DNA of 63,712 nucleotides, filler included, from Octopus bimaculoides (lineage: Eukaryota), in the NCBI RefSeq assembly GCF_001194135.2. It is 11 parts of 10 records of this genome, joined end to end, with 100 filler letters (N's around TTAATTAATTAA, not from the genome) between each part and the next. Parts side by side here need not be neighbours in the genome. Positions count along the whole stretch, not along the records: positions 5,058 to 26,431 come from NC_068991.1; positions 26,532 to 30,669 come from NC_068994.1; positions 30,770 to 37,366 come from NW_026392067.1; positions 37,467 to 39,024 come from NW_026405551.1; positions 39,125 to 43,527 come from NC_068988.1; positions 43,628 to 44,913 come from NW_026381434.1; positions 45,014 to 54,569 come from NC_068986.1; positions 54,670 to 57,713 come from NC_069005.1; 3 more parts are not named here. One strand, written 5' to 3'. A program made the translations under genes and the position numbers. Below the pieces are notes generated by a model that saw nothing but the letters and a program-made list of their open reading frames with translations, did no database searches and was not told the DNA's origin. Each line of letters begins with the position of its first letter. Positions within the stretch are counted from its first letter, which is position 1. Of the stretch, positions 10,960 through 62,940 are shown one piece after another.

Positions 10960-11575
10960 TACAAAAAAGAACAAAAATGTAAAAGTCAGTGAGGTGAGGA
11001 GACAATAAACAAGGTGTATTTGGTTGAGGCTTTAGCGCTCAGGAATAATGGAAGAAGTCTTTGAAGTTTCGAACCAATGCTCTTCTACAGAAAGGAACGA
11101 GGAGAGAAAACGGATGGAGAGAGGAAAAACGGAGAGAAAGAAAAACATGTTGAGAGGAAAGAAGGAAATAATTCGACCAGGAAATAATGGACCAGTAACT
11201 TAGGTTATGGGTGCCTCCTGAAGTAGAGTAGGGGGTGAGTTGACGAAGATGTGTGAGGTGGAGGTGTCAGACTGCAATCGGCGAAAGCACATAGAATGGT
11301 GTTTTGGAGGGGTAATAGGAGACGGGAAAATAGGTAATAGTTGAGTGGATGCAGAGAGAGACAACGGATGAACGGTCAGCAGAAAGGGCACGGGTAAAGG
11401 CGATTTGGAAGATGGTGGATTGGTATCCCCGTTGTGTGCAATGGTGATCCATGAGAGAATAGGAGTCTGCAGGGGCCGAGAGAGAAGGAGAAAGAATTAA
11501 AGAGACGAAGAGCATTTTAATATCAAGAATGTGTTGCGAATTTACAAAACAGAAATTCTGCCGCATCATGAATTT
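10960..11575 (-). mobile_element. Penelope-like 3' remnant (RT C-terminal region plus HHR-bearing terminal repeat)
   Basis: Translations QRGYQSTIFQIAFTRAL and FRRLQSDTSTSHIF resemble the PLE post-RT region. Followed by a terminal segment homologous to 26250-26410 and 62810-62940. Confidence 0.7.
11059..11094 (-). ncRNA. Degenerate minimal type I hammerhead, family B
   Basis: CTTT-CTGTAGA-A-GAGC ATTG GTTC-GAAAC-TTC-AAAG. Stems I and II pair; G16.2 is mutated to U. Confidence 0.6.
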
Positions 11576-11588
11576 TACTCATTGATTT

Positions 11589-11771
11589 TTAAGTCGCATC
11601 TTGAATTTTTACATCATTAGTCTTATTTTCCTTTTCCATCATCTTCACATCGTCAATTGTCTGTAGTAAATTTCGGTTTCTAGTTTCCGGTAAGAATACT
11701 TGAAGTAAAATGGAAGCAATTATACATCCGGTTCCTAAGATAATCCCAGGACCCCAAGGAGCAGCCATAGC
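11589..11771 (-). CDS. SLC22: SLC22/MFS organic-ion transporter, last coding exon (TM12 and tail)
   Basis: Acceptor tttctatccttag|; phase 0; AMAAPWGPGIILGTGCIIASILLQVFLPETRNRNLLQTIDDV...QDAT*. LPET..R.L..T.DD is the SLC22 C-terminal signature. Family-level identification only. Confidence 0.92.
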   Translation of the reverse strand, partial: AMAAPWGPGIILGTGCIIASILLQVFLPETRNRNLLQTIDDVKMMEKENKTNDVKIQDAT

Positions 11772-12912
11772 CTAAGGATAGAAAGTTAAATATATTAGTG
11801 GAATTATATAAAATATATTTTATCATTTGATAGGAACAACAATCTGACCAACCAATACTGAAGAAATTATGTGACGACGACCAATGAAAATAGCAAATTT
11901 AGTAGTAAAGTATAAGCTATGTAAACCTATCAATGACGTTGGCTTTTTTCATTACGAAAAAGAGAGAGCAGCTTATTCCAGCAGATTCATTAGACATTAT
12001 GTAGGTGCGGTGGGAGTAACAGAAGAATGCAAAGATAAGATAGAGGGCAAGAGAGTTAGCGAGTGACAGAGTGAGTAAGTGAATGAGTGGGTGAATGAGT
12101 GAGTGAGTAAGGGAATAAGGGAGTGAGTAGGTGAACGAGTGAGTATGCGAGTGAGTGAGAGAAATATAGCTTTTAGATATCTAAATTGCACAAAAGTGAG
12201 TTCCTTAATACACACATACGTATACATACATACCCGCCACACACGTACATATAAATATGTATATATGTATATATATATATATATATATATATATATNNNN
12301 NNNNNNNNNNNNNNNNNNNNNNNNNNNNNNNNNNNNNNNNNNNNNNNNNNNNNNNNNNNNNNNNNNNNNNNNNNNNNNNNNNNNNNNNNNNNNNNNNNNN
12401 NNNNNNNNNNNNNNNNNNNNNNNNNNNNNNNNNNNNNNNNNNNNNNNNNNNNNNNNNNNNNNNNNNNNNNNNNNNNNNNNNNNNNNNNNNNNNNNNNNNN
12501 NNNNNNNNNNNNNNNNNNNNNNNNNNNNNNNNNNNNNNNNNNNNNNNNNNNNNNNNNNNNNNNNNNNNNNNNNNNNNNNNNNNNNNNNNNNNNNNNNNNN
12601 NNNNNNNNNNNNNNNNTATATATATATATATATATATATATATATATATATATATATATATATATGTATAGTGTATGTCTGTGCCTCTATGTGTGTGTGT
12701 GTGTGTGTGTGTGTATGTGTATGTCTGTATGTATCCAAAAGTTCGTAGGAATTAAATTTTTCAATAGCGTTGCGAGTGTTTGTTTTTCATTCGTTCGTTA
12801 AATGTTTTCAGGCACAAAAGTGTGCCTATCTTATGGTGATATAAGATAACAGCAGCGCGTCCAAGCGAGTAAGGCGCAGATGAACTATCGGAATATCATT
12901 CTGGGTGACCAG

Positions 12913-61554: not shown

Positions 61555-61700
61555 ACACATATACATACCTATGCCTTCCACACAGTTTCCGTCAACTAAA
61601 CTCATTCACAAGGCATTGGAAAGCCCAAAGTTATATTAAACGTCCTTTGCCCAAGTTGTTGCACATTGAGATTGAACCCAAAATCACGAGGTTGCAAAGT
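61555..61700 (-). mobile_element. SINE family A, old 5' half
   Basis: cagtttccgtcaactaaactcattcacaaggc..ttgcccaag..gattgaaccc. Confidence 0.6.
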
Positions 61701-62809
61701 CCGAGAGATCTTGTCAACCCCGCAACCAGCGAAGCTATAATGAAGGTTACAAGTTCAACAAGATTAATTTTGTAACGAGATCGGAAACATAATTGAAATA
61801 TATCACGACGTGAACTAATATCGGTGGATCTACGTCGTTGAGCGAAGAGGATTCAATCTTCAGAGTAAACTTGTAAGTTGTTGAGTATTTCAAAGAAATG
61901 TATAGTGTTCACGTAATTTTCAGTCAGAATCAACGTCACAAACTAAGTAATAAACACTCAACTTTTGAAATACAGGTACAATCCACCCGATGGGTGTTAT
62001 ACAGTTTCCCTCTGCTCAATTTAATTCACGTGGCCAGAATTGACCGTTAATATCGAAAATTACACTTCCCGAAATGTGACGCAATAGGATGAAATCGGAC
62101 ACCCCGGGGATGCGAAGTAAAGAAGACCTGGAACGTTATGAAGTTTTGCGTACTTCAACGCTTAATGATAGCATGTAACGTTTCGGAAATTCGCCCCTCA
62201 TTTAAAACCAAAACAACTGAGGAGAAAATAATCATCTCAAATATTTAAAAGATCGAGAAAGGAATATTTTAGTATGTATGGTCCCGCTCTAATAAGATTG
62301 CTTCATAGAAATTCGTGTACGGTGGTGTATCTGAAAGAGAATGTGCGAATTGTGAGAAAGAGTGTCATGTAGAGTTCTCACACAATTCAACATGAGTGTT
62401 TTCCGGTTACTTACTGGAGATGTCTTGTACGCATGCGCGAGTTGTCTGTGACAGTGATGATATTCGCCTGAACGTAATATTCGGTGAAGATGATCATTAT
62501 TGGCAAGTAGCGGGAGTGTGCTGTGTGTGGGTTTAGAGAGACAGAGAGAGAGAGAGAATGAAATGATACGCGCGTGTGTGTTGGTGGGTGTGTGCGTGTG
62601 TGTGAGTGTGTGTGTATGTGTCTGTGAGTGTGCTGGTGAGGGCTCGCCTGTTGGTTTATATACATGTATAAGAATATAGGTTATTTCATATATTTTACAC
62701 AAATGTTTATATAACCTTACCAATCTACTCGTGTATATATATATATATATNNNNNNNNNNNNNNNNNNNNNNNNNNNNNNNNNNNNNNNNNNNNNNNNNN
62801 NNNNNNAAA

Positions 62810-62940
62810 AAAAAGACGTAGGCGGGTGTGTAAACAACAAAGAGATGTATTAGTTTAACGCTCGGGAAGTGAGAAAGTATTTTACTTTTCGAGCCTACGC
62901 TCTTCGACAGAAAGGAACACAGAAATAAACAGGGAGAAAA
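62810..62940 (-). mobile_element. PLE-derived terminal-repeat element with hammerhead family B (62879-62914)
   Basis: CTTT-CTGTCGA-A-GAGC GTAG GCTC-GAAAA-GTA-AAAT; homologous to 26250-26410. Confidence 0.72.

Follow-up and report, generated by a model that had tools for sequence, protein, structure and literature searches.

Minimal type I hammerhead ribozymes of Penelope-like elements (PLEs) are described as having a short helix I, a palindromic or absent helix III and an extra base after A9; they occur as thousands of dispersed solo motifs that belong to several families per genome, some of them U3-A8 variants, and include opposite-strand pairs 100-700 bp apart. The Octopus bimaculoides motifs analysed here are alike in all these respects, and differ from the minimal hammerheads of those descriptions in the A6U change of one family (A) and in the very long stems II of two others (D and F). 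Many hammerhead families per animal genome have been published (PMC4209133), including 16 families in a coral genome (PMC7229834); hammerheads as PLE ends, with several families per genome, are an established picture.

Several described elements resemble in part our family B, which belongs to a Poseidon-type PLE. In the Poseidon element PAc of Anolis carolinensis (Frangieh et al. 2024, PMC11167929), as in B, the ORF begins in the pLTR and crosses the hammerhead, two 3' ends define the tail, and no read ends at the cut site. The B ORF matches at 37% a multi-copy 836-aa Anolis protein (P0036), which we infer to be that of PAc. In contrast to B, PAc is not known to have a tRNA-like head, and its start codon lies within the core, whereas that of B lies about 30 bases upstream. 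Pen2a of Adineta and EN+ PLEs in general (PMC3846280, PMC8557442) share with B the head-to-head inverted pLTR, the one-sided tail of about 30 bases, the palindrome at the 5' end of the pLTR and the first codons inside the pLTR; their promoters are described as TATA/Inr-like or intron-overlapping, whereas B has tRNA A and B boxes. The schistosome repeats Sm-alpha and Sj-alpha (via PMC6765202) likewise combine a polymerase III promoter and a hammerhead in a short repeat, but they are tandem and non-coding, and a PLE ORF, inverted arm or tail is not part of their description there. The TRIMp3 elements Helenus, Ajax and Cassandra (Kojima 2024, PMC10886601) also carry a small RNA-derived polymerase III promoter in the terminal repeat; they are non-autonomous LTR elements shorter than about 1.3 kb with no ORF, whereas the PLE whose repeat is B encodes protein and measures about 2.8 kb. 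Our family C resembles PLEs of the Hydra clade (Craig et al. 2021, PMC8557442), in which CxxC and CxH surround the conserved E and N and the insertions end in (TA)n; the supplement of that study includes an octopus Hydra family, which is marked 'no pLTR'.

Hammerhead motifs in the octopus window

The window, a stretch of 63,712 nucleotides, joins 11 stretches of the genome, so that adjacency in the window is not genomic adjacency. The initial annotation had placed nine hammerheads here, in five families with unrelated stems, and the distinctness of the five families is borne out, as is the assignment to the minimal type with a palindromic stem III. A minimal type I hammerhead can be recognised at eight of these sites; the ninth, at 53484, lacks the 5' core, with a GAA microsatellite in place of CUGANGA. 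Under a strict descriptor, consisting of the core, stems I and II, a palindromic stem III and NUH, three of the nine sites pass (21225, 40011 and 57174), and five others are decayed, still recognisable members of conserved families. A tenth site, which had been overlooked and defines family F, passes as well. The strict descriptor thus finds 4 sites, compared to 0.03+/-0.18 (maximum 1) in 30 dinucleotide shuffles, in agreement with the expectation that the motif count would exceed that of shuffled sequence; when one core mismatch is allowed, the excess is slight (4 sites versus 2.0+/-1.4). An Rfam scan of the window gave no hammerhead among the matches listed (150 of 273), which are dominated by microsatellite miRNA matches, and a scan of 21200-21300 alone gave no match to a hammerhead model.

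Family A is represented by a diverged minus-strand hammerhead with decayed stem III at 11059-11095, by a plus-strand element at 26239-26418 (hammerhead 26288-26324, with a private C3-to-U change) and by a minus-strand element at 62807-62995 (hammerhead 62879-62915, stem III decayed); all three have U instead of A at core position 6. The best copy of family B, at 21135-21393 on the minus strand, is a pLTR arm comprising the B-box half of a tRNA-like head, (AAT)n, the start of an ORF, an intact hammerhead (21225-21270) and a tail, and is joined to a short inverted head-to-head arm on the plus strand (21394-21435). Two further B copies, both on the plus strand, are a 3' part at 50196-50340, in which stems I and III of the hammerhead (50207-50250) are decayed, and the 3' half that follows the GAA microsatellite, at 53481-53603, with its incomplete hammerhead. 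Family C likewise forms a pair, of a minus-strand arm with the core and a long tail (30266-30434, hammerhead 30362-30422) and an inverted plus-strand arm that has neither (30441-30526). The remaining families have one site each: D on the minus strand at 39890-40243 (hammerhead 40011-40124, in which stem II is long and rich in A/U and stem III is an 8-base palindrome), the low-copy E on the plus strand at 57158-57246 (hammerhead 57174-57233), and F on the plus strand at 13323-13499 (hammerhead 13363-13447, with a canonical core and a long stem II).

Exact pattern matches in the genome, which are lower bounds and were controlled by the reversed pattern, number at least 11,274 for B, 7,107 for A, 1,109 for C, 632 for D, 75 for F and 5 for E (control 1 for A and 0 for all others). 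Three of the five E matches appear homologous, one of them being the site in the window itself. In loci fetched for other purposes, B occurs 5 times and A 7 times in 476 kb, i.e., one per 95 kb and one per 68 kb; three A and three B copies in 57 kb of the window are about 4-5 times this background, in small numbers.

Penelope-like parents of the hammerhead families

For the most part, the families represent the 3' ends (pLTRs) of PLEs that encode protein, of Neptune type in A, Poseidon type in B and Hydra type in C. The suspected link of the hammerheads to PLEs was right, while their description as non-autonomous retroelements mobilised by PLE reverse transcriptases (RTs) largely mistakes their nature: in natural copies of A, B and C the hammerhead end directly follows a PLE ORF, so the short copies are 5'-truncated or pLTR-only insertions of coding elements. 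That description comes closest to B, whose short copies begin at the tRNA-like head and resemble a SINE; even so, B belongs to a coding PLE. Several PLE types contributing their ends, inverted arms arising through internal RT starts, and a polymerase III-type head in B together form the explanation that we favour, at a probability of about 0.8; in this explanation cleavage is probably weak, dimer- or protein-dependent, and dispensable for transposition.

In family A, endonuclease, UTR and hammerhead are contiguous in three loci (L240, L244 and L238). The parent is a Neptune-clade PLE with RT and C-terminal GIY-YIG endonuclease, matched in tblastn by protein P0016 across both domains (L217-L245), and a cysteine (zinc-finger) linker is visible in the translations. 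Of the two RT remnants in the window that had been proposed as mobilising elements, the one at 11180-11600 (minus strand; RT pieces and linker, the endonuclease deleted in this copy) does belong to the Neptune-type family that bears A. The other, at 811-3874 on the minus strand, is a different Neptune-type element: its broken ORF includes RT, zinc-finger linker and the start of the endonuclease (tblastn with mollusc RT and GIY-YIG proteins, E-values down to 6e-95), and no hammerhead is seen at either end of this copy in the window. Pfam did not recognise the PLE pieces of the window.

Family C is contiguous with an endonuclease in L089, and L082 consists of endonuclease and UTR; in the translations of both, CxxC and CxH flank the E and N, as in the description of the Hydra clade (PMC8557442). 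Further marks of the clade are a CxCX5C linker and the motifs DKT and RWK; the C-linked copies end before the linker, which is visible just in the related L279, L305 and P0017-19. The link of D and F to Hydra-type ORFs is weak (tblastn E-values from 1e-7 to 7e-4, and one inverted junction at 2e-12); in the longest D copy (L118) RT pieces lead into the UTR, with no endonuclease match. Family E gave no parent element and no ORF link. Among the 90 GIY-YIG loci examined, of 112 listed, there are no parents of B, C, D or E; that of B was found via L183 and L313. Some associations were rejected: A beside a Nematis-type ORF (L043) and F in L278 are insertions into the flank, and copies of C (L077) and D (L120) next to Neptune-type ORFs are taken as nested insertions, not parents.

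In B, the ORF stop is followed after 30 bases by the tRNA-like head, and this in turn by (AAT)n, the start codon of the ORF, the hammerhead within the ORF, and the tail. Of 30 loci selected by their RT, 25 have B on the RT strand and downstream of it, and we have abandoned on this ground the idea of a stand-alone SINE that rides a PLE; the stop-to-head distance is 30 in all six loci measurable by regular expression. At three places the B tail continues into the N-terminus of the ORF, and P0020, a protein of 847 aa and of other origin that is 55% identical, matches with its N-terminus across the B hammerhead. PF00078 (RT) scores above cut-off in the L379 and L367 pieces of the parent ORF, for which there are 47 homologues; all parent copies seen are broken. 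The C-terminus has, by inspection, a GIY-YIG-like motif and no linker finger, and Pfam gave no family for this piece.

A head-to-head arm accompanies 44 of 93 B insertions, compared to 0 of 28 and 0 of 72 in two other SINE-like repeats, and the tail is on exactly one arm in 28 of 31 pairs; this geometry agrees with earlier descriptions (PMC3846280, PMC8557442, PMC11167929). The pLTR with ORF start and hammerhead, the inverted arm and the one-sided tail are all present in the parent of B. As candidate target-site duplications, the solo copies listed show one clear 17-base repeat, the others being short or absent. B differs from a separate non-coding SINE with a LINE-type 3' end in its ORF colinearity and in the absence of poly(A) after the tail (0 of 68), and from a non-LTR retrozyme (tandem units of 170-400 bases with canonical hammerheads) in its minimal motifs and in the rarity of tandem pairs; no joint closing a B unit, of the kind expected of circular RNA, was found among the best-supported matches listed. 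In the proposed mechanism, the RT-endonuclease of the element would nick AT-rich DNA, and reverse transcription would begin at one of two internal tail sites, as in the Anolis Poseidon, and mostly stop early or fold back, leaving head-to-head arms with the tail on one side.

The tRNA-like head of family B

Thirty bases past the ORF stop, the pLTR of B opens with a tRNA-like head that has A and B boxes. In a sample of 30 heads, chosen by a pattern that overlaps the A-box end, the A- and B-box patterns used are matched perfectly in 14, always 34 bases apart, and relaxed ARAGORN calls a tRNA in 8, compared to a mean of 0.1 (maximum 1) in shuffles. At default settings ARAGORN called no head in 21 loci; Rfam gave a weak tRNA match on one B copy (13 bits, E 7.7) and no tRNA match on a second, and BLAST of the head against phage sequences produced a single tRNA match, at E 0.7, which carries no weight. 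The arm starts within 12 bases of the head start in 44 of 76 cases; a sharp 5' boundary is usual among pLTRs, and this one coincides with a short palindrome, so that polymerase III does not have to start there.

Runs of four or more T are nearly missing from the sense strand of B (0.24-0.26 per kb in 50-55 kb of 30 copies, none common to more than three copies), compared to 1.5-3.7 per kb in six control PLE families of the same genome, a density 6-14 times lower. The per-column majority of B has no such run versus 4.1-4.8 expected (P=0.004 with base shuffling, 0.047 with synonymous shuffling), and the control majorities have 10 versus 11.2 expected; counted more coarsely, over ORFs together with bases flanking them, B has 0.9 per kb. 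G4 runs are also missing from the B majority (0 versus 2.9 expected), so that the T4 gap may reflect a general shortage of such runs. With a tRNA-like head and almost no T4 on the sense strand, B is likely read by RNA polymerase III; the boxes, the 5' ends and the T4 gap are indirect signs of this. The short copies were likely made in this way: polymerase III would start at the head, and RNA copied back to its 5' end would give thousands of SINE-sized copies. Since the ORF is free of T4 stops, the head promoter could also drive the coding RNA, which is possibly a polymerase III product too.

In RNA runs X21-X23, which bear a species label and may not be from the species of this genome, the coverage of B is the same in either direction and read ends do not accumulate, as would be expected from passive read-through. 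Among open-access articles, searched by title and the opening part of the abstract, none was found on a tRNA-type or polymerase III promoter in a PLE or on a PLE-dependent SINE; the use of polymerase III, likely for B, is reported for no other Penelope element in the literature searched.

Ribozyme cores and alternative readings

The CUGANGA, GAAA and NUH core is present in families B-F, and among parsable copies (parsing was unsuccessful for 7-10 of the 30 in each family), at positions outside the search pattern, it is canonical in 12 of 20 for C, 17 of 20 for D, 20 of 23 for F and 16 of 21 for B. Position 6 of A is U in 27 copies, C in two and A in none, one of the 30 being misaligned; the loop of A is present in just 3 of the first 100 canonical-core relatives, and pair 4 of stem I, a C-G in A, is G-C or A-U in such relatives. 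All six family motifs have a short palindromic helix III through which two copies could pair, with self-duplex energies of -1.7 to -11.6 kcal/mol and no stable hairpin. By inspection, the G10.1-C11.1 pair is found in A, B and F, requires a bulge in C, and is absent in D and E. Stem changes in B are mainly CpG-type decay; apparent compensatory pairs occur between A and its relatives and once in E. Text and supplement matches covered in the literature include no A6U family, and the variants of Lunse et al. 2017 could include A6U.

How far B uses its head can be construed in different ways. An autonomous coding Penelope/Poseidon element, with its whole RNA of about 2.8 kb made by polymerase III, T4 runs purged by selection and its own SINE generated from internal RT starts, is a tentative proposal, and we hold it with some doubt. 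A close call, a little short of even odds, is that the head is an old tRNA-SINE piece in a Poseidon 3' UTR, so that polymerase III would read solo pLTRs only, polymerase II would make the coding RNA, and the lack of T4 would be due to chance. The missing G4 runs and the synonymous-shuffle P of only 0.047 speak for such a capture, as do the pLTRs observed ahead of the ORF (L367, L373 and L388), which are without head and begin at B positions 78, 114 and 78, and the known pLTR promoters of PLEs, which are described as polymerase II promoters that have either TATA/Inr or an intron (PMC3846280, PMC8557442); the T4 deficit relative to six other PLE families and the location of the head at the 5' boundary of the pLTR, the reported start of PLE transcription, speak against it.

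The initial view of the five families as independent non-autonomous elements, retrozymes or SINEs using PLE enzymes in trans, would account for the many short copies without ORF, the preferred 5' starts of A and B, the parentless E and the D copy with no endonuclease match, but it is improbable given the colinearity of A, B and C with coding PLEs and the rarity of tandems (1 versus 13 head-to-head among the first 100 B matches). Chance matches in AT-rich, microsatellite-rich DNA, which the one-mismatch counts and the silence of the Rfam models might suggest, are hardly tenable: the strict descriptor finds 4 sites versus 0.03, the families have tens to thousands of copies (5 in E) against 0-1 in controls, and the position downstream of PLE ORFs is constant, which refutes chance for A-D and F and leaves E, with its 3 copies. 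It is rather unlikely that the motifs have ceased to be ribozymes and are retained because they bind a protein or signal reverse transcription and, in B, because they are part of the ORF. The spread of A with U6 would fit such a loss, as would the lower activity of A6C in Mg2+ reported in PMC3088659 and PMC7151607, the insertion of the Anolis element described as unaffected by hammerhead mutants (PMC11167929), and the absence of a read-end pile-up at the predicted cut sites of A or B, which fragmented libraries may hide; on the other side, the core is retained in B-F, although their stems are unrelated, as well as in several more families next to GIY-YIG ORFs, U3-A8 variants among them, and stem I pair 4 has changed as a pair of bases between A and its relatives.

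Several hammerhead families in one animal genome are ordinary; what is not routine is the tRNA-like head of B with its scarcity of T4 and the amplification of A with a U6 core. Repeat annotation is likely to class B as an unclassified SINE and to overlook the PLE end. Family A, with its fixed A6U in at least 7,107 copies, would allow the need for cleavage by PLE hammerheads to be judged from a natural case, following the Anolis work (PMC11167929). If the proposal for B is true, SINEs and autonomous elements would be less sharply separated, as a coding retrotransposon would have a polymerase III promoter, and a SINE would have arisen out of a PLE end with no LINE as its partner; if the RNA is fully made by polymerase III, the B protein would be translated from uncapped RNA, and the element would offer a natural system for cap-independent translation.

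Hammerhead families in the window and the genome

The initial annotation placed nine hammerhead cores in five unrelated families, and all nine are indeed members of five distinct repeat families: A (11059, 26289 and 62879), B (21225, 50212 and 53484), C (30362), D (40011) and E (57173). As cores they are less uniform; a strict descriptor recovers three of them, five have decayed, and 53484 lacks its 5' core. The fourth site hit by this descriptor, at 13363, had gone unnoticed and defines a sixth family, F (13363-13447, plus strand), which has at least two subfamilies differing in the long stem II (L336-L365). 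The excess of motifs over shuffled sequence holds for the strict descriptor (4 versus 0.03±0.18 in 30 shuffles), but shrinks to 4 versus 2.0±1.4 with one core mismatch.

The window joins 11 stretches, and those that were located sit on separate contigs (C11, C6, C25 and C110694). Across the 2.34 Gb genome (145,327 contigs), exact matches number 11,274 for B, 7,107 for A, 1,109 for C, 632 for D, 75 for F and 5 for E, while reversed-pattern controls for all six families give 0-1. The 5' core, scored in 30 copies per family only where the search pattern left it free, is canonical in 12/20 parsed copies of C, 17/20 of D, 20/23 of F and 16/21 of B; parsing failed for 7-10 of the 30 copies in each family, many of them truncated. 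In every family stem III forms no hairpin and pairs with a second copy, as it does in the minimal hammerheads described in the available part of PMC4209133.

Other repeats in the window include degenerate TTAGGG-like arrays with periods of 6, 23 and 86 (34932-35804), possibly interstitial telomeric or subtelomeric repeats, and several broken non-LTR retrotransposon ORF pieces beside (AAT)n and (ATC)n microsatellites (19418-24499, minus strand), within which a zf-RVT match at 23461-23862 falls below the cut-off (E 3.5e-5). Broken transposase-like ORFs at 7105-8008 (minus) and 37648-38498 (plus) are, judging by motifs, presumably Tc1/mariner-like.

Family B and its Poseidon-type element

Short B copies consist of a tRNA-like head, (AAT)n, about 60 bases, the hammerhead and a tail. 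A search with a 25-base pattern from the head gives 4,530 exact genome matches, and most of the 30 fetched run on into the usual 3' part. Relaxed ARAGORN calls a tRNA in 8 of 30 heads (0.1 in shuffles), and 14 of 30 match the consensus patterns of both the A and the B box perfectly, always with a spacing of 34. In Rfam one copy scores just 13 bits and a second has no tRNA match. The insertion geometry is the same as in Penelope-like elements (PLEs): 44 of 93 insertions show a head-to-head arrangement, compared with 0/28 and 0/72 for two control repeats, 28 of 31 pairs have the tail on exactly one arm, and none of 68 tails is followed by poly(A). Among 76 head-bearing arms, 44 start within 12 bases of the head boundary, 24 extend further upstream and 8 start inside.

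A Poseidon-type ORF adjoins B in L183 and L313. Of 30 loci retrieved with its RT, 25 have B downstream on the same strand, and in the other five homology stops before or near the ORF end; the distance from ORF stop to B is 30 bases in all six loci measured. At three places the B tail runs into the ORF N-terminus, and the homologue P0020 (847 aa, 55% identical) has the same N-terminal peptide, spanning the hammerhead. From this linkage and continuity, B is the end repeat (pLTR) of a coding element, with the tRNA-like head at its 5' boundary, built like Anolis Poseidon as far as the available part of PMC11167929 describes it. An initial view of B as a SINE carried along by a PLE was dropped, B being colinear with the ORF. 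The separate non-autonomous elements proposed in the initial annotation are likewise unlikely for the most part, and B does not behave as a stand-alone SINE.

Several observations accompany these copies. A longer, older B-like element (L032:516-780; 67% identical) has the same head plus an extra internal segment, and could date the head's capture. Two tRNA-Pro(AGG) genes in inverted orientation, some 300 bases from each other, lie roughly 1 kb away from a B fold-back insertion (L010:187-258, 559-630; L011:256-327). B matches are about 3.6-fold denser near the end of contig C1 (1-6 Mb; 100 in 5.7 Mb, versus a genome mean of 4.8 per Mb).

Stretches of at least four T terminate transcription by polymerase III. 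In 30 B copies the aligned sense strand totals 50-55 kb and holds 0.24-0.26 such runs per kb, each shared by no more than three copies; the figure for six further PLE families from this genome is 1.5-3.7 per kb. The per-column majority of B has none, against 4.1-4.8 expected (P 0.004 with bases shuffled; 0.047 with a synonymous shuffle in a 632-codon part); the majorities of the other six have 10, with 11.2 expected. Against polymerase III count the equal absence of runs of four G from the B majority (2.9 expected), an ORF-level T-run count, flanking bases included, of 0.9 per kb, and the lack of the head in all three ORF-leading B pLTRs observed. We put the probability that polymerase III makes the RNA of short B copies at about 0.7; that it would also make the coding RNA is less likely than not. 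In raw RNA data, possibly of this species, three runs give 6,066-8,320 reads on B within about 6% of each run, and two runs give 1,540-1,789 on A. Coverage of both is equal in the two directions, with no site on either where many molecules begin or end; this pattern is compatible with passive read-through and says nothing firm on cleavage.

Parent elements of the other families

The remnant at 11180-11600 has 40 matches in the genome, and the 30 that were retrieved have a Neptune-type RT, a cysteine linker and GIY-YIG. A UTR of 500-850 bases separates the endonuclease from family A downstream in L240, L244 and L238, and family A also stands at the ends of L225 and L231. Another Neptune-type element, distinct from the carrier of A, left the remnant at 811-3874, where no hammerhead was found; its best protein matches are from molluscs, in keeping with an octopus as the probable host. 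L089 runs from endonuclease through stop and UTR to the C hammerhead, its 5' end bearing an inverted C arm, and L082 shares the endonuclease and UTR; this C-linked endonuclease has Hydra-clade CxxC and CxH motifs. D (L118, L101) and F (L336, L355) have only weak Hydra-type matches upstream or at an inverted junction. For family E, with three homologous copies, no parent element was found. Among 90 loci examined, further hammerhead types stand after other GIY-YIG ORFs, many with a U3-A8 core (L129, L134, L138, L140, L144, L248, L253, L262 and L285, from several Neptune-type families), others unrelated (L132, L145, L148, L287, L153). This PLE parentage agrees with what the available parts of PMC4209133 and PMC8557442 describe.

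The family A core and relation to known elements

The family A core has U at position 6 in 27 of 30 copies, and no copy has A there. Canonical-core relatives give 1,574 exact matches (L186-L215 among them), and the loop of A occurs in only 3 of the first 100 listed; at pair 4 of stem I, family A has C-G where the relatives have G-C or A-U. Some copies of one relative subfamily (within L186-L215) have G at cleavage-site position 17. Lunse et al. (2017) reportedly list PLE hammerhead variants. According to the portions available, cleavage by a naturally occurring A6C variant is poor with Mg2+ and improves with Mn2+ (PMC3088659, PMC7151607), and hammerhead mutants did not block insertion of Anolis Poseidon in vitro (PMC11167929). 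Taken with A6U, these data suggest that family A can do without cleavage or else tolerates U6.

Retrozyme identity was rejected on the tandem-unit test, with 1 tandem against 13 head-to-head pairs among the first 100 B matches. The elements belong to the endonuclease-bearing PLEs with minimal hammerheads, and probably work as these do; the several hammerhead families first claimed are known biology. The nearest precedents for the B head, schistosome Sm-alpha (second-hand, PMC6765202) and TRIMp3 elements (PMC10886601), are non-coding in the parts of these sources available. Corresponding parts of PMC13282606, PMC4758252, PMC7229834, PMC3846280 and bioRxiv 10.64898/2026.07.22.740005 describe no tRNA-headed coding PLE, and a literature search, with repeat databases and subscription journals outside its scope, found none. 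What appears to be new here, against the sources covered, is the tRNA-headed Poseidon pLTR with an ORF poor in runs of four T, and the A6U family.
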